From contig CAWCFX010000001.1 in NCBI GenBank assembly GCA_963795085.1, positions 1,312,001 to 1,376,000 on the forward strand: a DNA stretch of 64,000 nucleotides. Direction: 5' to 3'. Below the pieces are notes generated by a model. The model did no database searches. It was not told the origin of the DNA and worked only from the letters and a program-made list of their open reading frames with translations. The DNA comes from an uncultured Gemmatimonadales bacterium (GTDB lineage Bacteria; Gemmatimonadota; Gemmatimonadetes; Gemmatimonadales; GWC2-71-9). This document shows positions 4,905 to 50,993 of the stretch, piece after piece (the first letter of the stretch is position 1; every line of letters begins with the position of its first letter). Both the position numbers and the translations under genes were made by a program.

Positions 4905-5117
4905 TTATGGCGTGGTTCGGCTCCGCCCCCGGGCCCGGAGAGCCAGCAGCAGCATGATCAGGCCGAAGGCCAGCAACACCAGGCCCCACCAGAGATTCAC
5001 GTTGTACCCCAGGGAACGGGCATAGATCGCCGTGTCCGAGACCAGGCCGAAGACAGTCAGCATGGCGCCGAAAATCAGGAACATCAGCCCCATGGGGAGC
5101 CGCAAGTCGAGGTTCAT
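4905..5117 (-). CDS. Small two-TM membrane protein associated with SSS transporter
   Basis: 70 aa, DLRLPMG and NVNLWWG motifs, two hydrophobic helices, directly downstream of the symporter. Confidence 0.75.
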   Translation of the reverse strand: MNLDLRLPMGLMFLIFGAMLTVFGLVSDTAIYARSLGYNVNLWWGLVLLAFGLIMLLLALRARGRSRTTP

Positions 5118-5122
5118 CGCGG

Positions 5123-6832: not shown

Positions 6833-7053
6833 GGTGGGTGAATCCTGGAGAATGGTCGGGTTGGCGGACCTTCAGGCACCGGGAGAGTCGAGTCGGAACC
6901 CCGCCGCGGCGTAGAGGATATATGGTATCGAAGGGCCTGGGGCAAGGGTCTGCTGGCGGAAGTTCCCTGGGGGGCGTAAGTTTTTGTCGGTGGAGCCACC
7001 GGCATCCCCCCCGCCGGCAACTCGCATTCCGTATCCCACTATCTGGAACATCC

Positions 7054-9102: not shown

Positions 9103-9147
9103 CCCAGGCTCCCCCCACGACTCCCACGCAGAGGTCCTGACACGCCT

Positions 9148-12410: not shown

Positions 12411-12442
12411 CGGGAGGGGAAAATAGGAAAGACCGCAAACAG

Positions 12443-12499
12443 GTTCACCGCGGAGACGCATCCCTGCGAGTCCCGGAGCGCCCCGCGCCTTCGGTGAAC
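12443..12499. terminator. Imperfect inverted repeat between convergent genes (terminator or REP-like)
   Basis: GTTCACCG 12443-50 pairs with CGGTGAAC 12492-99, with an imperfect inner extension. Confidence 0.4.
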
Positions 12500-12524
12500 G
12501 TTCCGCGCACTCATCCCACTGCCT

Positions 12525-15500
12525 TCACTCCTTCACATAGATACGGGCAGTCCGCGCCGGCACCCGCAGCCGGAGCTTGCCGTTGGACGTCGCGAGACTG
12601 CCGCCCGCCGGGTAGGCCATCCGGTACCGCCCGCTGGCGTCAACGGCCACGTCCTGCCGGCTCTCCGAGTTATTGAAAACCACGACGGCGCGCTGGTCGC
12701 CGAGAACCCGCTCGTAGGCCCCAACGCTCCGGGCATCGTCGGTCATCAGCCAGCGAACCGACCCGTCCACCATCAGGCGGAGATTGTTTTTCCGGAGCGC
12801 GATCAGTTCCTGGTAGATCCGGAAGAGGGCGGTGTCCGGGGTGACCCGGTCCCGTTTGCGGGGCCGGGCCAGCACGTGCGCGGTCTCGTCGTCGTACCGG
12901 AGGTCGGCCCAGACCAGGGGTTTCCGCATGTCAGGGTCGTCGGCTCCCCACATGCCTACTTCGTCCCCGTTCCATATATGCGGCGCTCCCACCCAGGTGA
13001 ATTGCTGGACCAGGATCATCTCCTGGGTCACCCGGGTTTCGGCGTCGGGTCGGTCGATCCGGTAGTTGGGATCCTCCTGGGGCCGGTTGTGATACTTGAA
13101 CTTGCCGGGGTTATAGATCGACGTGGCGAACCGCGGCGTATCGTGCGAGGCCGTCAGGTTCATCATCGCCCGCTGGTGCGATGAGTCCATGTCGGCGCCC
13201 AGGGAGTCCAGGACGGCCGCATACCCGCCGGGCGTGAGCCGGGGCTCGGTCCGGGCAAAGAAACCGCGGGTGGGCAAGTACCAGCGGTAGTTCATGACCG
13301 CGTCGAACACGTCTCCCTGGAGCCAGGGGCGCGGGTCGTAGATCTTGTCCGGCCATTCCTCGAACCATATCTCGCCCACCAGGTAGGCCTCCGGATTGAT
13401 GCCGCGGACGAATCGCCGGTAGTCCCGCCAGAATCCCAGCGGCACCATCTCGGCCACGTCGAGCCGGAACCCGTCGATCCCGTCGGAAGGATCCCCATCG
13501 CCGTTGGGATCGAGCCAGCGGCGGGTGACGTTGAAGACCAGGTCCCGCACGCCAGGCACCAGGTTGCCCTCGATGGGACCGTGGGTCTTCCCTTCGGGGC
13601 GGCCCACCTTCTTCAACTCCGGCAGCCAGGGGACGCCGGCCCACCCGCGGTACGCGAACTCGCTGGTGTCGGGCGTCGCGGGATCGTCGAAGCGCTGGAT
13701 CTCGTACCAGCCGGCGTAGGGTGAGGCCGCCTGGCGCCGGAGCACGTCCTGCCAGGCCCAGAAAGTGATTCCGGTGTGATTCCAGGAATAATCGACGATC
13801 AGTTTCATGCCCCGGCGGTGCACCTCGCTCACCAGGGCCAGGAAGAGGCTGTCCGCCGCCGTCCAGGTCCAGGTGGCGGGGTTGTCCGGGTCTTCCGCCG
13901 CCATCCGGGCCTCGTCTCCCCGGGGGTCGGGTCCGAAGTTCCGGTCGATATGGCGGTAGTTGCGCGCGTCGAACTTGTGCAGCGACGGGGCGTCGTTGAG
14001 GGGATTGAAGTAGAGCGCGGTGACGCCCAGGCCCTGCAGATAGTCGAGCCGGTCCAGCACGCCCTGGAGATCGCCGCCATAGCGCCGGAACTGGATAGAC
14101 TGGTCGAAGGTCTTGCCCGCCGCGCGGGCCCAGGGCTCGACCGCGTACCAGTCGTGGGACCAGGGCGCCGGTTGCCATCCCGGGGGGGCCGGCTGGTCGG
14201 TGAACCCGATGATGTCGTGAGCGGTAGGATCGTTGGCCGGGTCCCCATTGCGAAAACGCTCGACGAAGATCTGGTACCAGATGGCGTCCTGCGACCAGGC
14301 CGGCACGCCCAGGTTCACCGCGGTCTCCGGCTGGCCATAGAGAAACAGCAGGATGTCGTCGAGCCGCCCCCGCCAGGATGCCTCGCTGTGGGTTGCACCC
14401 TCGTAGCGCCGGATCACGAAGTCACGGCCTTCGCCGCGCCCCTGGGCCAGCAGCCAGGCCCGGACCGAGTCATGGGTAGGACCATACTCGGCGTCGAGCC
14501 CAACGGTGCCATAGTCGAACCAGTACCGGGCCCCCGCGGGCGCACGCAACCCGCCCCGGATGTCCCGGATGATGTACGGCGTCGAGTCCGGGATCGCCGG
14601 CATCGTGCTGTCCCGGAAAACCCGGGCGACCACCGCTTCCGACAGCGGAAAATGGGTCGAGACGCAGCCGCAGGCGCCGAAGGTCTCCGGATGACGGGTG
14701 ACGAGGTAGAATGACAGCAGGCCGCCCATGGACGATCCCATGACGGCGGTGTGCTCCGGCCCGGTGCGGGTTCGAAACTCCCGGTTTACCCGCGGCATGA
14801 GTTCTTCGGTGAGAAACCTGGCATAGTCAGGCGCCCGTCCCCAGGGCGAATACTCCGGCCCCCGCTCGCCGCTGCTCCAGACCCCGACCACGATCACCGG
14901 CGCGATCAGCCCCCGCTCCACCAGCCGCACCACCGACTCATCGACTCCCCAGTCCACCCCCGTATTGGCGATGCGAGGGTCGAAGAGGTTCTGCCCGTCG
15001 TGCATGTAGAGCACGGGATACCGGGTGGTCGAGGAACTGTCGTAGCCCGGTGGCAGCCAGATCTCGACATGCCGGGTGGGCCCCAGGTGGGCCGAGCGCA
15101 CGTCGGTCCAGTAGATGAGCCTGCCCCGGACCCCGGACCCCTGCCAGTCGGCGATGTGGCCGCGGATCGCCGCCGCCGCGGCGGCCTCAGCCTCCCGGCG
15201 CTGGGCGCCGGTCAGTGCGCGCTTGAACGCCGGGACCTCGTGGCTCACCGAGGTATCCCGGTTGACCTGGAGCTGGAAGTTGGGCGGTGTCGCACCGGTC
15301 GCGGTCTGGGCCTCGCGCTCCCAGGACCCGAGCGTGAACTTGTACTCGAAGGCGTAGCCCGGGCTCACCCGGATCCGGGCGGTCCGTTCCCGTCCCCGGC
15401 CCGACATCGCGAGCCCATCGGCGTTCCAGGGACCGAACTGGTCGAGGCTCCCCGTGATATACACCGTGCCGGTGCCAGCGGGGACCCGGACCCGGATGGT

Positions 15501-36837: not shown

Positions 36838-38037
36838 CTAACGCACCGCGATCGGCGCCGTCCAGCGGAACGGCCCCCACTCCATCACCAGGCTGCCCGA
36901 CCGCTGGTCCTTCGGCTCCACCGCGATCGTGAACGTCTCGGCCGGGGCCGCCAGCGTCTCGGTGGCAAGCGCGGTCCGGCCGATATCGTGGGCCGGGCCA
37001 TACCCCGTTCCCCACTGTCCGGTCTGGCGGTTGACGATCAGGGTCACGCCCTCCCGCCGGGGCAGAGTCCACAGCGTGTAGGTCCCCGGCTCGAGGTCTA
37101 TGGTGCCGAGAGTGATGGGGACCGAAGTGGAGAAGTGGGTCGCTTGGTTGGCCCCGGTCCGCCACACGACGTCGTAGGGGATCACCTCGCCGAGGAGCGT
37201 CCGGCCGCGGGCAAGGGGGCGGCCATAGTCCACCAGGAATGCCGCATCGCCGATCCGGGCCCGCAGGGTATCCCGCAGGCTGAGGGCGGGCGCCGCTCCA
37301 CCCGCTCGCTCCGCCGCGACAAACCGGGCCGCGATCGGCTCGATCTCAGGCGCCTGGGCCAGGCGATCCACCACGACCCGATAGGTCGAGCGCGCCCCGG
37401 AGTAGGTCAACAGCCGGCCACGCTCGTCCAGGGTGGCCACCCCGCTCCCCGCCAGCCAGTCGTGCCGGATCTCGGCGATCCCGCCGGGCTGGACCCGTAC
37501 CATCCCCCGGTGCATCGGCACCGGGTAGCGAGGGAACTCACGGTCCGGATAGAACTGGCGGAACCGGACGGCGCTGTCGGGGCGGTCGGCCGCGCGCGCC
37601 GCCGCAAGGGTGAACATCCGCTCCAGCAGGCTGTAGGACTGGGGGACATGGGGGACGGTGGGCATGCCGTCGGTCGCCATCGCGATCGTGTGCGTCCCCC
37701 GGCTGTCGGTCAGCCGGACCCGGACCGTGTCGGGGCCGAACTCCGCCCTGATCCGCCGCTCGCCGGAGTCGGGCTCGGCCGAGGGGATGCGGACGTGCAT
37801 GTCCATCCGGCGGATCGTCCCGTCGGGCGCCAGGTCCAGCTCGGTGCGCCGGATTCGAAGCTGGGGAAAGCGGTCCAGCCCTTCGCTGACGATGCGGTCG
37901 GGGTAGCGCGAGACTGCCTCGATCGAAACGGTGTCCCGGCCCAGCCGGGCGATGAATCCGTACCGCTCTTCCGGCTCCGGCGCGGCACAGGCGGCCAGCA
38001 CCAGCGAGAAGGCGACCGCGGAGGGTGTGCGACTCAT
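36838..38037 (-). CDS. DUF2911-domain lipoprotein
   Basis: Lipobox LAAC; VDYGRP..RGR, VWRTGANQAT, GTYTLWTLP, QTGQWGTGY. Confidence 0.82.
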   Translation of the reverse strand: MSRTPSAVAFSLVLAACAAPEPEERYGFIARLGRDTVSIEAVSRYPDRIVSEGLDRFPQLRIRRTELDLAPDGTIRRMDMHVRIPSAEPDSGERRIRAEFGPDTVRVRLTDSRGTHTIAMATDGMPTVPHVPQSYSLLERMFTLAAARAADRPDSAVRFRQFYPDREFPRYPVPMHRGMVRVQPGGIAEIRHDWLAGSGVATLDERGRLLTYSGARSTYRVVVDRLAQAPEIEPIAARFVAAERAGGAAPALSLRDTLRARIGDAAFLVDYGRPLARGRTLLGEVIPYDVVWRTGANQATHFSTSVPITLGTIDLEPGTYTLWTLPRREGVTLIVNRQTGQWGTGYGPAHDIGRTALATETLAAPAETFTIAVEPKDQRSGSLVMEWGPFRWTAPIAVR

Positions 38038-38147
38038 GGCAATCGTGTGGTGGGGAACGGTGAAGTGGCAGTGGAGCGCCGCCGAGATCGTGGTGGTTCC
38101 GACGGCGCTGAAGGCGGGAAAGTTCCACCCGCGGATGGCCCGCCGGA

Positions 38148-39437
38148 TCAGGGCCGCCGCGCCTGGTGTCGCGCGGAGCCGAAGAGGGCCGCGTGCGGCG
38201 TGGCGGCGTGCACCGTGCCGTGGGGCCACGCGGGTCGATCGAATGTTACCCCCCGCCGCGACGAGGCTCCCTCGCGGAACCCTTCATCCCAGGACAGCGC
38301 ACCGGTCATCCGGTCGAGCCGGGCCATCAGCACCCGCGCCTCGCCGTCGTCCTGCCCGACGATCACGATCCGGTCGCTCCCGGGATCGACCGCGGCCCAG
38401 TGGGGCAGGACCGTCGAATCGGTCTCCAGCGCCGAGACCTCGATGGGGTGGGAGGGGTCCGCGAGATCGAGGCTGACGATGCGATGATCGTACGCGATGG
38501 GCATGACCGAGTAGCGACCGACAGCCACCGGCACCGCGCAGCCCACCCGGCGCGGTTCGCGCATCGAGTGCACCAGGGTTACCGCCGGGTGCTCTGTCTC
38601 CAGGTCGGTCACCAGGTAGAATCCGCAGTAGTACGTATTGAGCATCGCGGTGCGCCCGCCCGGCAGGGCACGAATCTCGAACGGATAGTAGTGGATCGAG
38701 TCGCCGGCGAGCGGCGGGACCGCGATCGTCTTGAGGAGCCGGAAGTCGGAAAGCCGCCAGACCTGGATCACGTCCGCGGTACGTTCCACGTCCATGGGGG
38801 TGCTGGTGGTGACCGCACGATCGATCTCGGGGAGCACCTCGATGCCGTAGGTGCGAATGCGCGCGCCGGGAAAGGTCGAGTCGGCCGCCGAGGCGCTGCG
38901 GAGGAGCCGGCCCGCCGGGTCAAACTCGGCGAGGCCGCCGGGATCTCCGGGGATCGCGCCATTCCCGAACTGGAGGGACGCGATGACGTTGCCATTGGGA
39001 AGCCGGGCGAAGCTGTGCGGCCGACGGAACCCGGGCACGCTGTCGATGCGATGCGCCAGGCGGGGCGCGAGCGGGTCGGCGAGATCGAGCAGGAAAATCG
39101 TGCCGGCCATGTAGTCGCTGGCGAACAGTGAGCGGCCGGCCGGCAGGGTGAACTCAGTGTGGTGCGCCATGGCGCCGCCGATCCCGATGGCGCTGGAGGC
39201 GAGGACCGTGCCGTAGGTGGCGCTGGCCGTATCGGCATCGAGGACGGCGAGAAAGTTGCCGGCCCCAGGGGCAGACGCCTGGTGATCGCCTGCGTCCGAG
39301 GCGGCGCCATGGGGGCCGGCCCAGATGAAGAGATATTGTGCGGGAGTGACGGAGGAATCACGCGGCGTCGGGGAACAGGCGGCAACGACGGGAACCGCCA
39401 GCACGACGAGCGCCTGGCGCAGCGTCGGTCGAACCAT
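38148..39437 (-). CDS. Selenium-binding protein/methanethiol oxidase-like beta-propeller lipoprotein
   Basis: Lipobox VAAC; FLAVLDAD..SATYG, AHHTE, PHSFARL, PHW, C-terminal PHAALF. Confidence 0.7.
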   Translation of the reverse strand: MVRPTLRQALVVLAVPVVAACSPTPRDSSVTPAQYLFIWAGPHGAASDAGDHQASAPGAGNFLAVLDADTASATYGTVLASSAIGIGGAMAHHTEFTLPAGRSLFASDYMAGTIFLLDLADPLAPRLAHRIDSVPGFRRPHSFARLPNGNVIASLQFGNGAIPGDPGGLAEFDPAGRLLRSASAADSTFPGARIRTYGIEVLPEIDRAVTTSTPMDVERTADVIQVWRLSDFRLLKTIAVPPLAGDSIHYYPFEIRALPGGRTAMLNTYYCGFYLVTDLETEHPAVTLVHSMREPRRVGCAVPVAVGRYSVMPIAYDHRIVSLDLADPSHPIEVSALETDSTVLPHWAAVDPGSDRIVIVGQDDGEARVLMARLDRMTGALSWDEGFREGASSRRGVTFDRPAWPHGTVHAATPHAALFGSARHQARRP

Positions 39438-39810: not shown

Positions 39811-41919
39811 TCAGGGTGTCACGTTGACCTGGATCCGGGCCGGCGCGTTCGCTGAACCGAAGCGGCGCTCGTGACCGTCACCCGCCGCGGCGACCGTCAC
39901 CTGGTAGGATCCCGCCGCGGGCCAGGTCAGGGCAATCACTTCGTCCCGCGCGGGATTCAGCTTGCAGGTGCCCCGGCCGGCCTGCCACTGGCACCCGGCC
40001 CGCGGCGCCGGCGCAGCGCCACCGGTCCAGGTGACGCGGTACTCGACCTGCTCCCGGTAGGGGTAGCACGACGGCATCCGCAGCCGGAAGGAGGCCGGCT
40101 GGGTCGCCACCGCCGGCCCGGCGGCGGTGGCCGTCGCCACCAGGGCGCTGGACCCGCCCGGCGCCATGTCTCCGAACCAGAGATGCCGGTCGTTCATCAG
40201 CTGCTGGACATAGGGCGAACCCACCACCTTCCGCATGACCAGCGCTTCGGCCCGGAGTTCCAGGCCCCAGTCGAGGTCGGCGGTCAGCGCGTGGTTCGCC
40301 TGGCTGGTGGACCCGCTTCCCTCCGTCTGGGTCCCCGCGACCGCGGCACAACCGGACGCGGTGCCCAGCAGGTAGGGCTGCGGGCCCGCGCGCGCGCTCA
40401 GCGCCTCGTAGTTGAAGTTGAGCTGCAGGGCGGTGTAGATCGCCGGTTTGACCCTTACGGTCCCCTCCACCTGGACATCTTCGCTGGCGGTCACGGGTGA
40501 AGGCTGTCCCCGGGACTTCGCGCGGCATCCGCTGCCGCTGCAGGAGAACTCGAACTGGTTGCGATCCGAATTCCGGAGCTGAAACCGGCCCGCCGCCGCT
40601 CCGTCCGCGGTGACTTCGATGTTGCCCTCGATATAGGCGCTTACGTCCAGCTCGGCTACCGGCACGCCGCCGATGATGATCGGGAACACCTGGATGGGGA
40701 TGACCGGCCCGCCGGTCGGCGGAATGGTGAAGGTCCGCTTGAACCGGCCGGTCGCCGTCACGGTGGTCGTCAGCACCTCGGCCACCGCCATGCTGCCTTC
40801 GGCCGAAAGCGCCTTGGGACGGACCGCGAAGGGAATGCAGGGGATGTAGAAGAGTTCCAGGCGCGCCTTGAAGTCGGCGTCCATGGGGACGCCGAGGCTC
40901 ACGCTGCCCCGTGCCGTGCCGGTGGCGGAACCGCGGGAGCCGGATTCTTCCAGGGACACGGTCATGGTGGGCTCGATCGAGAAGCGCACCGGGATGTCAT
41001 TCAGGGCCAGGGTCCGCTCGGTAAAACACGTGGCGGTGGCGTCCCACGCCTCGGCGAGCTTCCGCTCGGCCCGGGTCCATTCGCTCACCGCGTGATCGTA
41101 GGTCCGCCGCCATTCGTCGGTCACCGCCTGGCCGGCGCAATCCCAGGAATCGTACCAGTTGCCGCACTTCTTCTGGGCCGGCTCGGTGGGGCGCACGTCG
41201 TCGGGCACCGGGTGCGCGGCGATCCACTCCCGGGCCAGGTCGAGGTTCACGATGTACTGGTCCGACTCGGTGATCGGGGTGCGCCGCACCAGCATCTGGA
41301 GCAGGCGCCGGGCCCCGTCGGGCAGGCCGGGCGCCTCGGTGACGGCCGTGAGTCCCCGGAGGTGGAGCACGTTGCCGGTGACGGATCGCCCGTTCACCCG
41401 GGTGGTCAGCGCGCTCGTCGAGACGCGGGTCAACTCGGGACGGGCCGCGGTGCTGACCTCCAGGGTCCGGGGAGGACCGTACGCAATGGACGGCAGGGTA
41501 CTCATGACTTCGGGACGGACCGCCGCAGCGGTCGGCCTGGTCGGCTCCTCTACCCGGCGGGCTGGTGGTGCCGCGGCGGCCGGTGGCGCTGCGGGAGTGC
41601 GGGTCGATGGCGCGGGCGGCGCCGCGGAGGCCGCGGACGGGCTGCTGGTGATCGCGCAGCAGGAGGAGCGCCCATCGAGCGATACCATGCTGGTCCGGAA
41701 GTTGGCAAAGACGGCCTGGCCCACCTTGATCGTGGCGAGGCTGCGCCGGTCGGTCACCCGGAACGTGAAGGTCTGGCCGGTGGCGGTGACCCGCGCCGTG
41801 ACCAGGCCGCGAGGGGCGTCGATGGCGGTGACGCCGCAGCAGGGAGCCACGGATTCCTGTCCCCCGAGCGGAACGGCTCCGGCGGCGAGCAGGGCGGCCA
41901 GGGCGATGAAGACTTTCAT
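39811..41919 (-). CDS. Large secreted Cys-containing hypothetical protein
   Basis: Signal peptide, CC-bracketed OB/CusF-like N domain, Pro/Ala linker, long beta-rich body. Start overlaps the upstream stop. Confidence 0.8.
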   Translation of the reverse strand: MKVFIALAALLAAGAVPLGGQESVAPCCGVTAIDAPRGLVTARVTATGQTFTFRVTDRRSLATIKVGQAVFANFRTSMVSLDGRSSCCAITSSPSAASAAPPAPSTRTPAAPPAAAAPPARRVEEPTRPTAAAVRPEVMSTLPSIAYGPPRTLEVSTAARPELTRVSTSALTTRVNGRSVTGNVLHLRGLTAVTEAPGLPDGARRLLQMLVRRTPITESDQYIVNLDLAREWIAAHPVPDDVRPTEPAQKKCGNWYDSWDCAGQAVTDEWRRTYDHAVSEWTRAERKLAEAWDATATCFTERTLALNDIPVRFSIEPTMTVSLEESGSRGSATGTARGSVSLGVPMDADFKARLELFYIPCIPFAVRPKALSAEGSMAVAEVLTTTVTATGRFKRTFTIPPTGGPVIPIQVFPIIIGGVPVAELDVSAYIEGNIEVTADGAAAGRFQLRNSDRNQFEFSCSGSGCRAKSRGQPSPVTASEDVQVEGTVRVKPAIYTALQLNFNYEALSARAGPQPYLLGTASGCAAVAGTQTEGSGSTSQANHALTADLDWGLELRAEALVMRKVVGSPYVQQLMNDRHLWFGDMAPGGSSALVATATAAGPAVATQPASFRLRMPSCYPYREQVEYRVTWTGGAAPAPRAGCQWQAGRGTCKLNPARDEVIALTWPAAGSYQVTVAAAGDGHERRFGSANAPARIQVNVTP

Positions 41920-43469
41920 GGGGTGACCTCCGACTGGAATGCGGCCTGTGTCAGCTGTTTGAACGATCCCACCGCCGCGACCAGCCGGGCCAGGGCGGCC
42001 TGGGCCGACGCCTTGTCGGACGCGCGCTGGAACTCCTGGTACGCGCCGCGGACATCGCCCAGCTGGTTCGGCATGGTCGTCAGCATCCGGAGGCCGGCGG
42101 TGAGCAGGTTGGTGTTGCGATAGCGGGCGATGAACTGGGGCAGGCTTTCCAGCACCAGGCCGAGGACCGCGTCGAAGCGGTTCAGCCGGGGGCCGCAGCA
42201 GGAGGCGACGAACGGCGAGGGGCCGGTGGCGTCCTGGGAGAATCCGTTGCTGGAGGTGGGAGCCGTGTCGGACGATTGTTCGACCGCCACCGTGAGGTCC
42301 TGGACGAAGGCCTCCATCTCGGGGACCTGTTCATCGAGCGGGGATTCAAACGCCGGCATGGCGGGCCCGGCCTGTCCGGCGGTCGGTACGGGCGTGGCCG
42401 CGGGCACTACACGGTAGCGGAAGATCATGCCGTCGTCGGCCACCACGTACGCCCGGTCCCGCCGGGGAAAACTCCAGGCCCGCGGCGTGTTGGGAAAACG
42501 GAAGGCCCGGGAATTCCACCGTCCGCCGCCGTCGGTGGTGAAGCTCATCTTCTGCTCTTCGAGGTACCAGCCCACCTGGGGATCGGCAAAAATCAGGTTC
42601 CCGTACCTCCCCACGCTGGCGAGCAGGCCCCGCCAGGTGACGCCCCCATCGGTCGTGCTGGAGAGCTTGCCATCGCTGGTCCGGACGATGCCGGTGTTCT
42701 CGTCGGTGAAGAAGAGGTCGGTAACTCCCACTACTTCCGGATCGCCCGGGCCGGCGAAGAACTCCCAGCTCTCGCCCCCGTCCGTGGTGCGGGCCATGAT
42801 GGCCGGCCCGGGGCAGGGGCCGACGCACTGGGTGGCGGCCACCAGGTAACCCACCTCGGGAGTGGGGAACTGGATGCGGAGCACATCGCAGTTGATCTGG
42901 CGGGTGGCGCCGCCCAGGGTCGCCTTGAACTGGCAGGTCGTGACGGCGCGCCAGGTTTTGCCGCCGTCCCGGGTCTTGAAAAGGGTATGCGGCACGGTAC
43001 CCATGCCCACCCGGCCCGTCGCGACGCCATCGTTCGGCGTCGTCATCACCACCTGCTTCGTGTAGTCCGGTGCCCGGCCGAGGTCCTCCCAGGTCTCTCC
43101 GTCCACGGTCCGCAGAACCCGGTTGTCCTTGAGCGCCCAGCCGTGGACCTCGTCCAGGAAATACAGCGAGGACACCCGGTCTTCGTCGGCCTCAGGGTCG
43201 CCGCCCATCTGGGCTGTCCAGGTGGCTCCGCCATCGCTGGTATGCAGGATGGTCCCCTTGTCCCCGGCGACCCAGCCCCGGTCCATGGTGACGAAGAAAA
43301 CTTCCTGCAGGTCGATGTCTTCGGGGTAACTCACCGGTTCCCAGATGCCCTTGAACGCCGGCTGGGCGGAGGCCCGTTGCTGGGCCGCGAGCGGAAACGG
43401 GAGGAGAAGCGTGAGGGCGACAGTCCACCCTGCCAGGGCGGACGGGAAACGTCGGGCGGTGGATCTCAT
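41916..43469 (-). CDS. Secreted YCF48/BNR (Asp-box) beta-propeller protein with helical C-terminal domain
   Basis: Repeated TxDGGxxW boxes (TSDGGATW, TRDGGKTW, TTDGGESW, TTDGGVTW, TTDGGGRW); signal peptide. Confidence 0.85.
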   Translation of the reverse strand: MRSTARRFPSALAGWTVALTLLLPFPLAAQQRASAQPAFKGIWEPVSYPEDIDLQEVFFVTMDRGWVAGDKGTILHTSDGGATWTAQMGGDPEADEDRVSSLYFLDEVHGWALKDNRVLRTVDGETWEDLGRAPDYTKQVVMTTPNDGVATGRVGMGTVPHTLFKTRDGGKTWRAVTTCQFKATLGGATRQINCDVLRIQFPTPEVGYLVAATQCVGPCPGPAIMARTTDGGESWEFFAGPGDPEVVGVTDLFFTDENTGIVRTSDGKLSSTTDGGVTWRGLLASVGRYGNLIFADPQVGWYLEEQKMSFTTDGGGRWNSRAFRFPNTPRAWSFPRRDRAYVVADDGMIFRYRVVPAATPVPTAGQAGPAMPAFESPLDEQVPEMEAFVQDLTVAVEQSSDTAPTSSNGFSQDATGPSPFVASCCGPRLNRFDAVLGLVLESLPQFIARYRNTNLLTAGLRMLTTMPNQLGDVRGAYQEFQRASDKASAQAALARLVAAVGSFKQLTQAAFQSEVTP

Positions 43470-43501
43470 CGGAGTGGCCTCGGGGTGAGAGGTGCACTCC
43501 T

Positions 43502-43529
43502 GAGTCCCCCATCGTCGCCGCCTGTTACA
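43502..43529 (-). promoter_or_regulatory. Candidate ECF-sigma promoter
   Basis: Minus strand TGTAAC (43529-24), 16-bp spacer, GGACTC (43507-02); 32 bp before the YCF48 start. Confidence 0.4.
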
Positions 43530-46224
43530 GGCCCGGCGGCGTGGGGTCTCCCACCAGGACGAACGGAGCCCAGGCGGCCGGATGACCATCCAACCCCGCC
43601 GTCCGGATCCACTGCCGCCGGACCTCTCGCAGGGCCTCGGCCGGATCCTGCCCCGCGTGCAGGCGGCGGTACAGCTCGGTCATGAAGCGAAGGGTGGAAC
43701 GATCCGTCACCGGCCAGAGCGACACCAGCACGCTCCGGGCGCCGGCCGAGAGAAAGGCGTGGGACAGGCCGACGACCCCCTCCCCGCGGACCCGCCGTCC
43801 CAGCGCGGTCTCGCAGGCGGACAGGGTGACCAGCTCGGCGGTCAGCTGGAGTCGCCGGATCGCCGGGGGGTCCAGGAGACCGTTGGCCATGACCAGGTGG
43901 GACTGGTCCGGCTCCCGGTCGTTGACGCTGGCATGGGTCGCGAAATGGAGATAGCGGTAGCGCTCCGGGCGCAGGCCGAGCCAGCGGTCAACGGTCCCCG
44001 ACCGACCGGTCAGGAGGTCGGCGCCCGCGGCACGGTAGAGCCCGGCGAGGGCTCCGGCTTCTTCCTCGGCGTACGGCAGGCTGGGACGCCGCGCCGCGGT
44101 GCCCCGCACGGCCATGGATGCCGGGGAGGCGGAGTTGCCCTGGGGATTACCGACCGCCAGGATAGCCCGCTCCCACGCGGGCCGGGCATTTGACTCGGAC
44201 AACTCGGCCAGCACAGTGGCCGAGGGACCGTAGACGATCCGGTGGGTGGCGCCGAGCGGTTCGGCGGTGACGTCGGGGAGCAGCACCTCGAGGGGAAGCT
44301 GCGCGAGGGGGCCGTCCACGATGGCAAGAAGCGTGGGGTTTTCCCCGGCCCGGAGCGGAAGCAGGATGTCGCGGTAGAGCCGCGCCGCTGCCGGCCGCCA
44401 GTCCGCCGAGCCGGGCCGCTCGATGGCCCGGCGAAGAAACTCCACCATCGCCTGCAATGAATCCGACGAGCCCAGGCGACGGCCGCGGATCGTCGTCCCC
44501 GTCACCGACCAGCCGAACACCGAGCTGTCGCCCCAGAAGATGGTGAGGAGCGTGGTTCCCGAATCTCCGAGCAGCCGTTGCTGGATATCGGCCAGCGAGG
44601 CCGGCGCGGGATGGATGGCAGTTCCCGGCTGTCCCGTCCTCGTGCCGCGCCGCTCCAGGGTCGCCAGGGAATCCTGGAGGACCCGGAGCTCCTCTCCGAC
44701 CACGCGGACCTGGGCCGAGTCGCCGCCGGCGGTGGATTCTTCGAATCGCTCGCGCAGCCTCTGCTTGAGCAATGCTTCGGGCGAGACCCGCCGGTCGGCG
44801 TTCCGCTCGGCCATGACTTCCAGCAGCATCCGGGCGCGGGCCCGTTCCGACACGGCGAACGCATCGGCCAGCCGGTCTTCGGCGAGCAGCGTGCGGATCG
44901 CGCCTTCGTAGATCGCCCAGCGTGGCTCCGCGATGCCGAGCTTCAGGTCTCCCATGGCCAGCCGGCCGCGCCAGGATTCGAGCAGGTCCACGCCCTGCAG
45001 GAAGAACCGGGACGCGCCGGGGCGCCCCTCCAACTCGGTGACGCTGCCCCGGAGGGCGAGGACGGTGAGGTCCGCCTCGGGGGATCCCAGGGAGTCGGCG
45101 ACGACCGCGGCCACGCCGAGCAGCCGGCGCGCCTGCCGGGGATCGCCACGGCCGAGGGCGAGCCGAGTCTGCCCGGCCAGGATCCGGAACCGCTCGTAGG
45201 CGAAACCGCCCGCGAGCGCCAGCGGCAGTGCCCGGGCCAGGACCGCGTCGGCCGAGTCGGGCTGACGTTCCGCCGCGGCGATCTCTCCCAGATTGGCGAG
45301 GGCAATCACCTGGTAGATGGCTGGATATCCGGTGGGGAGGGCCAGCGAACGCTCGAGGTGATTCCGCGCGGCCGGGACATTGTTGACCTTGAGGTAGTAG
45401 TCGGCCAGGGCGTTGTGGGCATAGACCATCGAGCCGGTATCGCCGAGGGCCACCGCCGAGGCGAGCGATTGGGTCATCAGGTCGATGGCCTGGTCATAGC
45501 GGCCGGTATAGGCCCGCAGACCGGCGAGGTTGCTGATCAGGTAGCCGCCGGTGGAGGTGTCGGCGATCCGGCGGGTGATCGCGAGGCCTTCCTCGTAGGC
45601 GGCCGCCGCCTCGGGCAGGCGCCCCACCGCGGCATACTCTACGCCCATGCTGTTGAGTACGCCGGCCAGCTGGTTGGGCGTGCGGCCATGGCGCCGCTCC
45701 AGGGCCAGCGCCCGCTCCGTCTCCGCGACCGAGCGGCGGAACAGTCCCCGTCGCGAGTAGATGGTGCCGAGCTGGGTATGGACCCGGGCTTCCAGCTCGC
45801 CGATCGCGAGGCGCTCGGCCAGGTCCTGGGCCCGGGCGCAGTCCGCGATCGCCTGCTCGGAGCGGCCCAGCCGGGATCCGAGCGCGCAGCGCTGCAGGAA
45901 GGTCCAGCCATGGCGGGAGGAATCGGCGCCGGCGAGGAGAAACGCGTCCCGGATGGCGGCGTCGGCACTGTCGGCCCGGCCCTGCCGCATCAGCGTCTCC
46001 GACCACCCGATCTGGGCCCGCCACCACCCGGCGGTGTCACCGGCGACGGCGAACGAATCGCGGAGCCGGCGATACTCCGGGTGGGCCCGGGCAAAACGGC
46101 GCTCGGCCCGGAGGCTGTCGGCGACCGCGAATGGCGAGATGGAGGACGGCGGCGGGTCGCCCCCGCACGCCGGGGCGAGCAGGAGTGCGATGGTCCACCA
46201 CCAGGAAGCCTGGCGCGGGCCCAT
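43525..46224 (-). CDS. TPR-CHAT caspase-like protease, predicted lipoprotein
   Basis: Lipobox LAPAC; TPR-like repeats; CHAT motifs LPLEVL, LPYAEEEA, LHFATHA (His), VTLSACET (Cys), LVSLWPV, WAPFVLVG. Confidence 0.92.
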   Translation of the reverse strand: MGPRQASWWWTIALLLAPACGGDPPPSSISPFAVADSLRAERRFARAHPEYRRLRDSFAVAGDTAGWWRAQIGWSETLMRQGRADSADAAIRDAFLLAGADSSRHGWTFLQRCALGSRLGRSEQAIADCARAQDLAERLAIGELEARVHTQLGTIYSRRGLFRRSVAETERALALERRHGRTPNQLAGVLNSMGVEYAAVGRLPEAAAAYEEGLAITRRIADTSTGGYLISNLAGLRAYTGRYDQAIDLMTQSLASAVALGDTGSMVYAHNALADYYLKVNNVPAARNHLERSLALPTGYPAIYQVIALANLGEIAAAERQPDSADAVLARALPLALAGGFAYERFRILAGQTRLALGRGDPRQARRLLGVAAVVADSLGSPEADLTVLALRGSVTELEGRPGASRFFLQGVDLLESWRGRLAMGDLKLGIAEPRWAIYEGAIRTLLAEDRLADAFAVSERARARMLLEVMAERNADRRVSPEALLKQRLRERFEESTAGGDSAQVRVVGEELRVLQDSLATLERRGTRTGQPGTAIHPAPASLADIQQRLLGDSGTTLLTIFWGDSSVFGWSVTGTTIRGRRLGSSDSLQAMVEFLRRAIERPGSADWRPAAARLYRDILLPLRAGENPTLLAIVDGPLAQLPLEVLLPDVTAEPLGATHRIVYGPSATVLAELSESNARPAWERAILAVGNPQGNSASPASMAVRGTAARRPSLPYAEEEAGALAGLYRAAGADLLTGRSGTVDRWLGLRPERYRYLHFATHASVNDREPDQSHLVMANGLLDPPAIRRLQLTAELVTLSACETALGRRVRGEGVVGLSHAFLSAGARSVLVSLWPVTDRSTLRFMTELYRRLHAGQDPAEALREVRRQWIRTAGLDGHPAAWAPFVLVGDPTPPGL

Positions 46225-46850
46225 TACTCAGGCGGGAGCGGAAGGAGGGGTGAGCGGGCCAGGGGCCGCCGCAACTGGTCGAACGCCTCCAGCTCGAAGT
46301 AGGTCGTATCCACCCCGCCGGCCGGGCCCAGGGAGTCCCGGGGGATGACGACAACGGTATCGGTGAGCTCCCGGCTGAACCGGGGGGTGCCGTCGCCGGC
46401 GGAAATACGGACTCGATAGGCGGTGGCGCCCGCGACGGCCGGCCAGCTGAGCCGCCAGGCTCCGTTGACGGAGGCGGCTCGGGCGGTGAGACTGTCGGTG
46501 CCGCCCCGCACCTCGTCGGGGAGATCCCGGCGCGGGGCCAGGACCTGCCAGGTGATCACGGTGGCCAGGAGCAACCCCGCCGCCACCGCGAGCGGCATCC
46601 AGCCGCGCCGCCGGGCGGAGGCGGGGGTGACCCGGTCGCCGGGGCGCGCCGCCCGGACCTGGGCGCCTCCCTTGACCAGGGCCCAGCAATGCTCGCATCC
46701 GAAGTAGTGCGCTTCAAAGGCGGACGCGACCGGCTCGGGGAGTTGCCCCAGCAGGTAGCGGCGGTCCAGGTCCTCCTGGTCCACCCGCTCGCAGGTGATC
46801 GGTTGGTCGTTCACAGGATCAGAGTCCCCGAAGGTGTCCTGGCGTTTCAT
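46224..46850 (-). CDS. zf-HC2 anti-sigma factor with TM helix and Fn3-like extracytoplasmic domain
   Basis: FEAHYFGCEHC (HxxxCxxC), TM LAVAAGLLLATVITW, LSWPAVAGATAYRV. Confidence 0.85.
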   Translation of the reverse strand: MKRQDTFGDSDPVNDQPITCERVDQEDLDRRYLLGQLPEPVASAFEAHYFGCEHCWALVKGGAQVRAARPGDRVTPASARRRGWMPLAVAAGLLLATVITWQVLAPRRDLPDEVRGGTDSLTARAASVNGAWRLSWPAVAGATAYRVRISAGDGTPRFSRELTDTVVVIPRDSLGPAGGVDTTYFELEAFDQLRRPLARSPLLPLPPE

Positions 46851-47377
46851 GCTTGCCGCTCCTCCAGCAGCGCCGCCAGCCGGGCCAGGGCCCGGTGTTT
46901 CCTGACCCGGAGCGCGCCCGGCGTGATGTCCAGGCGGCGCGCGGTTTCGCTGCTGTCCTCCTCCTCGAAGTAAATCCGGTGGAGCAGGTCCCGGTCGTCC
47001 GACGCCAGCGCGGCCAGGCCCCGGCGAACGACCCCCCGGGTTTCCTCGTTGACCAGGGCATCGAGGGCTTCCGGAGCCGCTTCTCCGGTAGTCGCACCGC
47101 GGACCCGGGCGAGCGCGCGTCCTTCCCGCTCCCGGGAGCGGTAGTGATGCATGCAGAGATGGGTGGCAGTCTGGAAGACGAAACCGGGGAGCGCATCGGG
47201 GTTCTCCACCCGGCCCTGGCGCAGCGCCTCGGTCACCCGCCGGAGGACTTCCTGCGCCAGGTCCTCGGCCAGCGCCGCATCGCCCAGCCGGCGCGCGCCG
47301 AAGACCCGCAGCCGCTCCCAGAATCGGGCCGCGAGGTCCTGTTCCAGCGCACTCTGGGCGGGCGGGTTAGGCGTCAT
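46847..47377 (-). CDS. ECF RNA polymerase sigma factor
   Basis: Region 2 AEDLAQEV; region 4 ETARRLDITPGALRVRKHRALARL. Confidence 0.9.
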   Translation of the reverse strand: MTPNPPAQSALEQDLAARFWERLRVFGARRLGDAALAEDLAQEVLRRVTEALRQGRVENPDALPGFVFQTATHLCMHHYRSREREGRALARVRGATTGEAAPEALDALVNEETRGVVRRGLAALASDDRDLLHRIYFEEEDSSETARRLDITPGALRVRKHRALARLAALLEERQA

Positions 47378-47561
47378 GGTCTGGCGGTGGGGATGGAACA
47401 ATCTCGGGGTTGCCCGGCGGGGCCGCAAGGTGAACGCGCGACGCTCCGGCCCGTTCAGCGCGCCTGGCACTTCACCCGGTCATGCCAGGTCGTATCCCCC
47501 GGCGAGCATTCCCAGGCAGAGGGCCAGCGGGAGCCAGGTGTCCTCGAAGCAGGGCCAGGTT

Positions 47562-48086
47562 TCAGCGATCCTGCGCTTCGGCGGCCGGGCCAGGTGCAGT
47601 CACCGGGGGACCCAGCCGGCGCATGACATACACGGTCTCCGCTCCACCAGGCGCCGATGGATGAAGCGTGGCGGTCCATTGGTCCGGCGTATTCCGGGTG
47701 TAGGTAAAACCGCCGCTTGTCGCACCCGGACGCCGAAACTGGATGCGATCCGGCTGGACCATCACCGCCTGGTATTGAGTCTGGCCGTCCCTCGAGCTCA
47801 CCACCACGCCCTGACGGAGCTCGAACCGGGACGAATCGGTCGCGGCCTGGAGGGTCGAGTCGCTGAAGGAGCGCATGTGGATCGTGGAGTCGTCGATACT
47901 GCGATACTCTTCATAGAACGCGGCGTACGCGCCTCCGCTTCCGCGCCAGGCTCCCTCCAGCCACTTGAGTTGCTGAAACTGGCTGACGGTCACCCCGGCG
48001 TCCTGGCTGGCGCACCCCGGCGCCAGCGCGGCGGTGGCGGCCAGGAGTAAGAGCATCGTGGCAACGGGTGTGGAGCACCGCGGCAT
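47562..48086 (-). CDS. DUF6265-like lipoprotein
   Basis: Lipobox APGC; LKWLEGAWRG, FYEEY; RBS AAGGAGG. Confidence 0.7.
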   Translation of the reverse strand: MPRCSTPVATMLLLLAATAALAPGCASQDAGVTVSQFQQLKWLEGAWRGSGGAYAAFYEEYRSIDDSTIHMRSFSDSTLQAATDSSRFELRQGVVVSSRDGQTQYQAVMVQPDRIQFRRPGATSGGFTYTRNTPDQWTATLHPSAPGGAETVYVMRRLGPPVTAPGPAAEAQDR

Positions 48087-48767: not shown

Positions 48768-50993
48768 TTACACCTGCAGGCCCACCCGGGCCAGCAGCTC
48801 CCCGTACCGCGGCGCGCCAAACTCCAGGCTCCAGAGGTTTTCCGCCCGAAGCCCGAGGGCATATGGGTCCCGGACGTCCAGGCCCCGGTGCATCCACCGG
48901 TAGAACGCGTCGCGATCGCCGAGGTGGAGGTGGAGCGTGGCGATCGCCGGGGCGCAGACGGTGGGGTCGCTCTCCGCCCGGTGTTCCAGTTCCTCCAGCA
49001 CGACCCGGGCTTCCGCTTCCCGGCCCAGGCCCGCCAGGGCGCAACCGCACTTGGCGGTGGGCCAGCTGGCCCGGTGGCTGAGCGCCATGGCGCGCTCCAG
49101 CCGCTCGAGAGCCGGGGCATACTGGTGATTCGACAGGTGGATATACCCGGCGATGTGATAGCCCTCGGGGAACTGGGGATCCAGCTCGATCGGCCGCTCG
49201 GCGAGCGGGAGGGCAGCATCATACTCCCCGCGATAGGTCAGGAGGGTGGCTTCGGTCAGGAAACCCATGAACCCCAGTGGGTCGAGCCGGCGGCCTTCTT
49301 TTGCGGCCAGGGTTCCGGCCGCCGCGTCTCCCGCGAAGGCCAGGTAGAAGGCGTACATGAAATGATCGAAGTTCGCCCCGGGCTCCAGCTCGGCCGCCCG
49401 GGCCCAGAGGCGACGCGCTTCCGGCCAGTTCCAGTCGCGGTAGGTGGCCACCGCCGCGAGCAGTGCGTGGGCCGGCCCCGAGCGCGGGTTCGCGGCCAGG
49501 GCCCGGTCGGCGAGCGACTGGATGCGGGCCCAGGCGGAGGTCGGCTCGAGGTAGCCGAAGAAGGCCGAGATCACCAGCGGTGACCCCAGCGTGGTGTAGG
49601 CCGGCGCGAAGGCGGGGTCGCGCTCCATGACCTGTTCCAGCAGCGGCGCCGCATCGGGGAGCCGCATCAGCGACTGGCCCAGCATGTGCCGGGCGCGGAG
49701 GTACAGCTCGTAGGTCTCGCTGTCCGTCTGCGGCGCGGCCCGGTCGGCCGCTTCCTCGTCGGTGAGGCGGGCCCGCAGCTCGCCCACGATGCTGCCGGAA
49801 ATCCGCTCCTGCATCTCGAATACGTCCTCGATGGTCCCCCCATACTTCTCCGCCCACAGGTGGGAGTCGGTGGTGCCGTCGATGAGCTGGGCGGTGATCC
49901 GGAGCTGGGACCCGGCGCGGCGCACACTGCCTTCCAGCAGGTAGCGCACGTCGAGCATCCGGGCGACCTCCTTGAGGTCACGGGTACGCTGGTAGGCGGC
50001 GGCCGCCGAGTTCCGGGCGATGACCCGGAGGGCATTGATGCGCGACAGGTCCGCCGTGAGCTCCTCGGTCAGCCCGTCGCCGAGGTACGCGTCGTTGGGA
50101 TCCGGCGAGAGGTTGTCGAAGGGAAGCACGGCGATCGAGCGTCCGCCCGCGGCATCCCGCCGCGCCGCTTCCGGGGTCCCGGCCGCGAGCAGCGCGTCGG
50201 CAAAGGCGCGGGCCGAGGGGAACCGGGCGGCGGGATCGCGGTCGAGGGCGCGGGCGATGGCCTCGTCGCACGGCTGGGGCACCTCGGCGCGGAGGGTGCG
50301 GGCCCGCGGGGCTTCGGTGGTGAACCGCTTGACCAGGATCGCCTGGTAGCTGTTCCCGGTGAAGGCCGGTTCTCCGGTGAGCAGCTCGTAGAGAATGCAG
50401 CCCAGCGCATAGACATCGGATGCCGGCCCCACGTCCGTCTCGCCGGAGGCCAGTTCGGGGCTCATGTAGGCCGGGGTCCCCAGGGACGTGCCGGCCTGGG
50501 TCAGGGCGGGCTGATCGCCGGCGCGGCGTACCTGGGCGATGCCGAAATCGGTGAGCAGGGCGTGGCCCCGGTTGATCAGGATGTTCTCCGGTTTGAGATC
50601 GCGATGGATCACGCCCTCGCCATGGGCGTACTCCAGGGCGTCCGCGATCTCCCGGATCATGCGAATCGCGGTGGCGACGTCGAGGGTCTTCTCCCTATCC
50701 AGCAGCGCGCGCAGGGACTCGCCTTCGATCAGCGGCATGACGAAGAAGAGCTGGCCGTCCAGGTCGCCGGAATCGAAGACCGGGACGATGTGGGGGTGCT
50801 GCAGCCGCGCGGCCGTTTCGATCTCCCGGAGGAACCGGTCGGCGCCGATGGTCGCGGCGATCGCGGGCAGCATGACCTTGAGCGCCACGTCGCGGCCATG
50901 CCGGGTGTCGCGCGCGCGGTGAACCACGGCCATGCCGCCCCGTCCCAGTTCGGTGGTGACCGTGTACCGCTGGGCGATCATCCCTGTCGTCAT
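48768..50993 (-). CDS. Ser/Thr protein kinase with TolB-like and TPR domains
   Basis: LGRGGMA, VALK, HRDLKPEN, TDFG, YMSPE, SIAVLPFDNLS. Confidence 0.93.
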   Translation of the reverse strand: MTTGMIAQRYTVTTELGRGGMAVVHRARDTRHGRDVALKVMLPAIAATIGADRFLREIETAARLQHPHIVPVFDSGDLDGQLFFVMPLIEGESLRALLDREKTLDVATAIRMIREIADALEYAHGEGVIHRDLKPENILINRGHALLTDFGIAQVRRAGDQPALTQAGTSLGTPAYMSPELASGETDVGPASDVYALGCILYELLTGEPAFTGNSYQAILVKRFTTEAPRARTLRAEVPQPCDEAIARALDRDPAARFPSARAFADALLAAGTPEAARRDAAGGRSIAVLPFDNLSPDPNDAYLGDGLTEELTADLSRINALRVIARNSAAAAYQRTRDLKEVARMLDVRYLLEGSVRRAGSQLRITAQLIDGTTDSHLWAEKYGGTIEDVFEMQERISGSIVGELRARLTDEEAADRAAPQTDSETYELYLRARHMLGQSLMRLPDAAPLLEQVMERDPAFAPAYTTLGSPLVISAFFGYLEPTSAWARIQSLADRALAANPRSGPAHALLAAVATYRDWNWPEARRLWARAAELEPGANFDHFMYAFYLAFAGDAAAGTLAAKEGRRLDPLGFMGFLTEATLLTYRGEYDAALPLAERPIELDPQFPEGYHIAGYIHLSNHQYAPALERLERAMALSHRASWPTAKCGCALAGLGREAEARVVLEELEHRAESDPTVCAPAIATLHLHLGDRDAFYRWMHRGLDVRDPYALGLRAENLWSLEFGAPRYGELLARVGLQV

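Follow-up and report, generated by a model that had tools for sequence, protein, structure and literature searches.

The window analysed here is a stretch of 64,000 nucleotides (nt) from an uncultured Gemmatimonadales bacterium (assembly GCA_963795085.1, contig CAWCFX010000001.1, positions 1,312,001 to 1,376,000 of the forward strand). It contains five open reading frames (ORFs) of interest here, encoding a sigma factor of the extracytoplasmic function (ECF) type, an anti-sigma factor, a TPR-CHAT protease, a BNR-type propeller protein and a secreted protein of 702 amino acids. All five were found at the coordinates given in a first-pass annotation of this DNA, and all lie on the minus strand; coordinates below are window positions. 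The first three genes (referred to as the trio) form a real, conserved and mechanistically coherent module, with the following features.

47400..47428, minus strand: possible housekeeping-type promoter of the sigma gene, TTGCGG-N17-GAGATT, proposed from the sequence alone
46847..47377, minus strand: ECF sigma factor, 176 amino acids, regions 2 and 4 only (Pfam PF04542 and PF08281, TIGR02937, all above cut-off)
46824..46849, minus strand: predicted ECF promoter TGAAAC-N14-GGGGAC for the anti-sigma and CHAT genes, overlapping the sigma stop codon (matrix score 26.8 bits)
46224..46814, minus strand: anti-sigma factor with a CHCC (predicted zinc-binding) domain, one transmembrane helix, a disordered linker and an Fn3 outer domain (alignments, profile, AF2 model)
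46500..46517, minus strand: D112-E-V-R115/G116-G, predicted CHAT cleavage site in the anti-sigma factor (conservation; unstructured in the AF2 model)
43525..46224, minus strand: predicted lipoprotein TPR-CHAT (clan CD) protease, 899 amino acids (Pfam, alignments, AF2 model, fold matches, complex model), with lipobox Cys20, dyad H764/C804, invariant acids E722 and D841, and predicted exosite helices 589-615
43504..43529, minus strand: predicted ECF promoter TGTAAC-N14-GGGGAC of the secreted gene pair; it overlaps the stop codon of CHAT (20.3 bits)
41916..43469, minus strand: secreted YCF48/BNR beta-propeller with a conserved C-terminal helical domain, 517 amino acids, probable output (Pfam PF14870)
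39811..41919, minus strand: secreted protein of 702 amino acids, no known family, probable output (weak PKD match only)

The genes of the trio had been described as overlapping at their stop and start codons. This stands for the anti-sigma and CHAT genes, whose TAATG overlap is retained after correction of the anti-sigma start site, but the ATGA overlap of the sigma and anti-sigma genes probably does not contain a real start. The start was reassigned because (i) this ATG (46850) falls inside the -35 box of a conserved promoter, (ii) the homologues start at the column of anti-sigma V13, where Met is present in 112 of 143 proteins, and (iii) GTG 46814 is placed 35 nt past the start of the -35 box, the commonest offset (17/44 sites; the first start codon lies 32-36 nt past this point in 38/44). 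Thus, the anti-sigma factor probably begins at GTG 46814 and not at 46850, which gives a protein of 196 amino acids with little or no leader; its residue numbers are counted here from ATG 46850. The two downstream genes, annotated as coupled and secreted, do overlap by ATGA, and both products have a hydrophobic N-terminus.

The anti-sigma ORF (46850-46224) carries HYFGCEHC, i.e. the HxxxCxxC motif noted previously, and its match to zf-HC2 (E 0.0045) is below the cut-off. In the alignments C20 is conserved in at least 90% of sequences and H48, C52 and C55 are invariant, which suggests that the CHCC domain binds zinc. The single transmembrane helix (about residues 87-105) and an outer domain that folds as Fn3 (AlphaFold2 (AF2) model, matches to Fn3 folds) also agree with the first reading of the sequence. 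The anti-sigma profile matches RslA and DdvA residues 9-103 (DdvA E 5e-6); the latter protein is a zinc anti-sigma factor of Myxococcus xanthus (PMC6061681) fused to a periplasmic TPR-CHAT, and its structure has been solved (PMC11506125). The nearest named relatives of the anti-sigma factor are from Gemmatimonadota. A gene for RseP is present elsewhere in the same genome.

The CHAT domain (residues 611-893, E 7e-62; PF12770, 209.9 bits against a cut-off of 24) is the only one in this genome, which is 93% complete. As annotated, it retains LHFATHA and LSACET and is preceded by a lipobox. The catalytic His is the second one, H764, aligned with the His of DdvA and of Csx29, and the catalytic Cys is C804. 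Alignment of 19 CHAT proteins (one frameshifted and one truncated copy omitted) revealed that the lipobox Cys20, H760, H764, C804 and D841 are invariant (19/19). Down to 25% identity, the H764/C804 dyad is invariant in 44/44 CHAT domains, as are E722 (at the start of helix alpha1), W837 and D841 (W837+4). The invariant lipobox Cys suggests that the protein is exported.

The AF2 model of the TPR-CHAT protein (predicted local distance difference test (pLDDT) 83.8) matched the folds of Csx29 (the top match; Z 26.7, root mean square deviation (rmsd) 8.3, 559 residues), the separase protease domain 5fc2_B (Z 26.3, rmsd 3.1, 303 residues) and DdvA 315-991 (Z 22.3, rmsd 4.8, 554 residues). The best match in a profile search with the CHAT domain was DdvA (E 1e-13); matches of this kind came with profiles, and single-sequence searches of the PDB returned only TPR proteins or nothing. 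As described for MALT1 and gingipain, the S1 acids of clan CD enzymes come from helix alpha1 and loops L4/L5 (PMC4357240), the L5 acid lying next to a conserved aromatic residue. By topology, not by superposition, the regions of E722 and of D841 (with W837) would correspond to these. Csx29, a Leu cutter, has Ser at the aligned D841 position. The active-site loop 813-815 is of low confidence in the model of free CHAT.

Two further Arg-containing stretches were observed in the protease itself. The sequence RGEG (residues 813-816, window 43777-43788) occurs right after the catalytic Cys in 30/33 orthologues and in 19/44 of the wider set, and Arg followed by a small residue occurs in the disordered loop 698-712 (about 44089-44133), before helix alpha1, in 26/33 orthologues. 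Both lie in low-confidence loops of the model and may be auto-processing or pseudo-substrate sites.

The survey of 301 genomes of the same order (at most three candidates scored per genome) revealed a CHAT match with E <= 1e-20 in 87 and an orthologue-level match (<1e-100) in 21, own genome included. From 18 of the 20 other orthologue genomes (two with short contigs were omitted) 19 regions were fetched, together with one distant CHAT locus. The sigma, anti-sigma and CHAT genes have the same order and strand in 19/19 orthologue loci, which is in line with the CRISPR-independent trio proposed at first. In the window and in all 19 loci, the anti-sigma factor and TPR-CHAT do not form one chain: each has its own ORF, and a stop codon and a lipobox are present; fused forms were not found among 8000 longer candidates, which is weak evidence. 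The distant CHAT locus contains neither the sigma nor the anti-sigma partner.

A GTDB scan with the zinc-finger motif yielded 290 relatives, of which the best 80 loci were analysed; this set overlaps the first one, and the counts are not additive. Acidobacteriota, Ignavibacteria, Clostridia and Betaproteobacteria are among the record titles. The same Fn3 outer domain is present on the anti-sigma factor in 45 of these 80 (the core loci), which carry the sigma gene in 44/45 cases, the CHAT domain in 42/45 and the TPR part in 45/45, the three without a CHAT domain being contig ends with the TPR part present. The BNR gene adjoins the trio in 23/45 core loci and the 702-amino-acid family in 15/45. 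In 23 of the remaining 35 loci, CHAT was present in the fetched stretch.

Several variants of the layout were recorded. Behind a single anti-sigma gene, L061, L062 and L083 (about 5000-14000) carry two lipoprotein TPR-CHAT genes in tandem, which suggests that two inputs converge on one switch. The Acidobacteriota loci L089, L090, L093 and L094 pair the same Fn3 anti-sigma factor with CHATs that have a different N-terminus (with a PDZ-like match in L093), so the input domain seems exchangeable. Locus L091 carries the trio twice, one copy behind the other, and in the first copy sigma and anti-sigma share a reading frame. In Acidobacteriota loci whose anti-sigma factors have Ig-like outer domains (L120:8676-9557, L125:8637-9380, and similarly L119, L126, L127 and L131), a gene for about 250-300 amino acids is placed between the anti-sigma and CHAT genes; its product has no obvious signal peptide, and both of the two tested match choice-of-anchor P (NF040603) above cut-off.

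The Arg-Gly site and the modelled complex

The linker between the transmembrane helix and the Fn3 domain is variable in length and sequence among the homologues. In the first alignment (n=32), R115 and G116 within it were invariant, except in L045, where Ala follows the Arg. Searching 1.84 billion cluster representatives with a profile yielded 226 matches at E <= 1e-30; of the 150 listed, 143 were aligned (five long repeat proteins were dropped and two were already in the set). Arg is present at position 115 in 140/143 and Gly at 116 in 123/143, and conservation of the linker columns 103-114 reaches a maximum of 52/143. The residue after the Arg is small (G/A/S) in 136/140, P2 is mostly L/V/F/M, and P3 mostly V/A/T. 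Residues 105-119 are unstructured in the AF2 model (pLDDT about 58), ahead of the beta domain.

Distant anti-sigma factors, picked by the zinc-finger motif alone, have outer domains of TPR type or Ig-like type and not Fn3. An aligned Arg stands just before the outer domain in 9/9 TPR-type and 15/15 Ig-type relatives, although at least one Ig row looks forced by the aligner. An alignment-free search for x-R-G within 5-65 residues past the transmembrane helix gave 42/45 among core and 16/28 among distant proteins, against 3/25 control zf-HC2 proteins; these controls are those with a transmembrane helix and an outer domain among 37 fetched loci, and one family dominates them.

As reported, HetF, the founding CHAT protease, cuts PatU3 at R117/S118, and substitutions of R117 abolish the cut (PMC9457339); for separase, cleavage is described to follow an Arg located in unstructured motifs (PMC10317155). 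According to a preprint on gasdermins (10.1101/2021.06.07.447441), there are also CHATs that cut after Leu, so membership of the family does not fix P1. In its conservation and disorder, the sequence DEVR/G at R115/G116 looks like a CHAT cut site.

The first-pass annotation had proposed that CHAT acts on the anti-sigma factor, with a complex prediction for CHAT and the outer domain as a check. For CHAT 27-895 with anti-sigma 102-208 this prediction scored 0.74 (median of three), against 0.01 for the best control. This mark was reached by 116/157 solved complexes and by 2/215 mismatched pairs, counts that apply here only roughly, because the prediction used alignments made for this analysis. 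Between runs, at least 51% of contacts are shared, and partner pLDDT does not fall below 72. In the confident interface, CHAT 589-615, 243-247, 277-285 and 838 are joined with anti-sigma 143-159, 184-204 and 114/116/117; the invariant CHAT F596 and the near-invariant anti-sigma G154 belong to it. The model thus supports binding of CHAT to the outer (Fn3) domain. Likeness to CHAT-substrate structures may contribute to the score; for the Fn3 contact, it is unlikely that the model reproduces a solved complex, because DdvA is without an Fn3 domain.

Promoter motif, secreted genes and neighbouring genes

The motif TG(T/A)AAC-N14-GG(G/C)(A/G)AC precedes 46/50 anti-sigma genes of other genomes. Scored over the 7.77 million positions of the own genome, a matrix built solely from 44 distinct sites of other genomes ranked the site at 46849 (26.8 bits) first and that at 43529 (20.3 bits) second. 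Ten column-shuffled matrices gave no match of 26.8 bits and six of at least 20.3 bits; support for the 43529 site therefore comes from its position and from the orthologues, where a site at this position recurs in L053, L054, L057 and L092. The motif lies at most 350 nt upstream of the BNR or 702-amino-acid gene in 17/23 loci, compared with 105/20000 random windows, the pattern used for this count having been written after the sites were seen. It accompanies these genes whether they are downstream of CHAT or divergent from sigma. Its co-occurrence with the trio suggests that this sigma factor reads the motif, and the two secreted proteins are probably its outputs, as had been supposed.

At the sigma start the motif is found on the opposite strand in 27/48 loci and upstream on the same strand in 1/48, and sigma autoregulation was rejected on the latter count. 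In L058, L060, L067, L068 and others the reverse-strand promoter overlaps the first sigma codons, and the conserved N-terminal sigma peptide MSPxxGERY appears to be a by-product of this overlap. Boxes of the TTGCGG-N17-GAGATT type are similarly placed before the sigma genes of L052-L054 and L073.

The C-terminal domain of the BNR protein (window 41916-42400) is helical and about 130 amino acids long; a CC pair is conserved in it, and an N-x-N-L motif is invariant. Its only family match was a weak one from PADLOC. The 702-amino-acid protein consists of a small Cys-bearing N-domain, a Pro/Ala linker, a beta-rich core and a PKD-like end; no lead to it was obtained in NCBIfam, in a profile search of the PDB (where the best match, with E 0.026, was a coiled coil) or in the Atlas (0.76, below the 0.9 mark). 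The products of further genes in the vicinity of the trio, or preceded by the motif, include members of the zinc phospholipase C family, OmpA, Kelch/Ig, PD40, Vgb-type propellers, GWxTD and DUF3592 proteins.

Directly upstream of the sigma gene, a small predicted lipoprotein (LAPGC; 47562-48086, minus strand) without a Pfam match is encoded; its gene was not found adjoining the trio in the fetched loci. Two genes upstream of sigma lies a Ser/Thr kinase with C-terminal TPRs (48768-50993, minus strand), which is absent from that position in the orthologue loci listed. The module is followed, about 370 nt further on, by two more predicted lipoproteins (36838-39437, minus strand), one of 429 amino acids without a Pfam match and a DUF2911 protein, and no motif site of at least 13 bits precedes their genes. 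PADLOC gave weak partial matches only, to 7 proteins of the window.

Proposed mechanism and its alternatives

The most likely mechanism, to which we assign a probability of roughly 0.62, is a regulated-proteolysis switch in which CHAT cuts at R115/G116. At rest, the zinc-binding domain of the anti-sigma factor would, by homology, hold the ECF sigma factor at the inner membrane, and the lipid-anchored TPR-CHAT protein would be docked on the Fn3 domain through its exosite helices, as modelled. A signal on the envelope side, probably a protein or peptide that the TPR solenoid would bind, would then activate the H764/C804 dyad, and, as conservation of the site suggests, the dyad would cut the linker at R115/G116 and remove the Fn3 shield. 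By analogy to DdvA, RseP would next cut the transmembrane stub and free the sigma factor. The latter would transcribe a small local regulon from the promoters described above: the two secreted proteins, together with the anti-sigma factor and CHAT but not sigma itself, which would reset the switch.

Several points weigh against this mechanism. In the report on DdvA, cleavage is proposed and not demonstrated, and the H862A and C907A variants still repress (PMC11506125). P4 is acidic in only 51/140 of the aligned sites, and the profile that ranked the 143 proteins included the Arg-Gly columns, which introduces a small circularity. The residues of the confident interface do not include R115 itself. 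Within 8 kb on either side, no CHAT gene accompanies three distant Arg-Gly-type anti-sigma factors with full flanks (L099, L106 and L121); these may use a CHAT encoded elsewhere in the genome. In clan CD, the catalytic His is described to be followed by a conserved Gly (PMC4357240), and here this residue is Ala765 (Ala in 45 and Gly in 10 of 71 CHAT stretches across the loci). The P1-binding Asp of separase (D2151 in C. thermophilum) is said to correspond to Csx29 K670 (PMC9729208); mapped indirectly through that residue it falls on L845, which is not acidic, and identity of D841 with D2151 was therefore dropped. The lipobox in the window, LAPAC, has an atypical Pro, and the membrane in which CHAT is anchored may be the inner or the outer one. 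Finally, related sequences are not independent, and the conservation figures are counts, not tests.

Rather unlikely, in our view, is a non-cutting CHAT that acts as a guard or co-sensor like RseB, gripping the Fn3 domain, holding Arg115 as a pseudo-substrate and shielding the linker until a signal releases it and a general periplasmic protease cuts site 1. Such a role would suit the Ala in place of Gly, the modelled interface, which is mostly exosite and not active site, the DdvA dyad mutants reported to have no resting phenotype (with the bulky domain itself blocking RseP), and the sigma-type promoter that CHAT shares with the anti-sigma gene, as expected for a negative regulator. Yet the His and Cys are invariant in all 44 CHAT domains compared, even the most divergent, and cleavage of a bond after Arg calls for a small residue such as the one present there, HetF cutting R/S. 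CHAT might also be one of the outputs, an enzyme for maturing secreted cargo or for cutting foreign proteins, Arg115 serving another Arg-specific protease or a structural purpose; its position downstream of a sigma-type promoter and the Arg-Gly-type anti-sigma factors without a nearby CHAT would fit. We consider this very improbable, as the cargo varies by locus (BNR, zinc phospholipase C family, OmpA, Kelch, Vgb, GWxTD) and CHAT stays beside the anti-sigma factor, on which it is docked in the complex model. The BNR protein as a CHAT substrate was rejected, since its DVRG is not conserved.

The lowest probability falls to constitutive cutting at R115/G116, with both fragments clamped by CHAT and a signal that only triggers their release. 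The predicted stable docking mode and the exposed, unstructured site in the model would permit it, and pre-cleaved anti-sigma factors are cited as precedents (PMC11506125), but those precedents are non-enzymatic, DdvA is reported to show no constitutive cleavage, and the low-confidence active-site loop in the free CHAT model is compatible with a resting state.

With regard to other phyla, we slightly favour a wider reading of the regulated-proteolysis switch, namely that ECF switches of one class extend over several phyla, with a free-standing exported CHAT as their dedicated site-1 enzyme, which reads x-Arg/Gly before an exchangeable docking domain (Fn3, TPR, Ig-like). If so, swapping or duplicating the CHAT gene (tandem in L061, L062 and L083; PDZ-fronted in L093) would change the input and leave the cut unchanged, a large share of the uncharacterised bacterial TPR-CHAT proteins would obtain a substrate rule, and the enzyme would be the first caspase-like site-1 protease acting in trans on a membrane anti-sigma factor.

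Proteases of the TPR-CHAT type occur widely, and for most of them no substrate is known. The authors of the DdvA study state that a site-1 role of CHAT can be validated only once the signal is found (PMC11506125). With enzyme and substrate on different chains, the split system offers a named bond (R115/G116), a docking surface and a two-site promoter motif, so that the question becomes testable without knowledge of the signal. Confirmation would add a caspase-like route to regulated intramembrane proteolysis, along with a portable protease-to-transcription switch.

Comparison with known systems

Site-1 cleavage outside the membrane followed by an RseP cut within it is the route of DegS-RseA-RseP, which also has a single-pass anti-sigma factor (PMC10028731, PMC11506125); unlike in that system, the predicted site-1 enzyme here is a dedicated, co-encoded, caspase-like cysteine protease. 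HetF of Anabaena, with PatU3 as its substrate, and separase are, like this protease, members of the clan CD CHAT/C50 group, Arg-cutting there and with Arg predicted as P1 here (PMC9457339, PMC10317155). According to these reports, HetF has its TPRs in the periplasm behind a transmembrane segment and CHAT on the other side, and neither the HetF nor the separase substrate is an anti-sigma factor; the position of the P1-binding Asp of separase is non-acidic here. ECF54 of Actinobacteria is likewise an ECF sigma factor with a conserved neighbouring TPR-CHAT, for which proteolytic control has been proposed (PMC7826278, PMC8999054). As described, ECF54 has no anti-sigma factor, subtilase and carboxypeptidase-regulatory neighbours and a GTATCAG/CTCC promoter, whereas the trio has an anti-sigma factor and another motif.

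The type III-E Craspase also pairs a TPR-CHAT protease with an inhibitor of an ECF sigma factor (PMC10028731, PMC9729208). Csx29/Csx30/CASP-sigma is the cytoplasmic, RNA-activated case (PMC10028731; type III-B preprint 10.1101/2023.06.23.546230): in these accounts the protease is activated by Cas7-11 and target RNA, and cuts the soluble Csx30 after Leu or Met. The protease described here differs in being probably exported, in its zinc-binding, membrane-spanning type of anti-sigma partner and in its predicted P1 Arg. It scores 18.4 bits with the Csx29 model NF041237 (cut-off 300), and the neighbouring genes are unrelated to Cas7-11/Csx30.

The closer relative of the trio is DdvA/DdvS. The first-pass annotation knew of no mechanistic description of such a system, and this did not hold: the DdvA authors had already proposed signal-induced cleavage of the linker by CHAT in trans, followed by RseP (PMC11506125). 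In that report the RseP step was shown on DdvA truncations, dyad mutants were without phenotype, and the signal was not known to the authors. Our literature search, which left most subscription papers outside, found no paper on a separate exported CHAT with an Fn3 anti-sigma factor or on an Arg-Gly linker site; supplements to the DdvA and ECF studies may mention such loci. This analysis adds the near-invariant Arg-Gly linker site, the modelled binding of CHAT to Fn3, and the promoter motif with its probable secreted outputs.

As in DdvS/DdvA, an ECF sigma factor with regions 2 and 4 only is followed, at +1, by a CHCC zinc anti-sigma factor with one transmembrane helix and a flexible linker, periplasmic in DdvA, and the TPR-CHAT part has the His/Cys dyad, H764/C804 being aligned with that of DdvA; a periplasmic location is suggested here by the lipobox. 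Unlike in DdvA, the anti-sigma factor and the protease are products of two genes, a lipobox is present on the protease itself, and the anti-sigma factor ends in an Fn3 docking domain behind a nearly invariant Arg-Gly. The sigma gene has no motif of its own upstream, unlike ddvS, which is reported to be expressed from its own promoter. DdvS/DdvA controls a CBASS/CRISPR defence island, whereas the regulon predicted here, from the two best motif sites of the genome, consists of secreted proteins. The trio is thus a split, two-protein version of DdvA which, having neither the fusion nor the defence-island setting, is a variant of that system and not a member of it.

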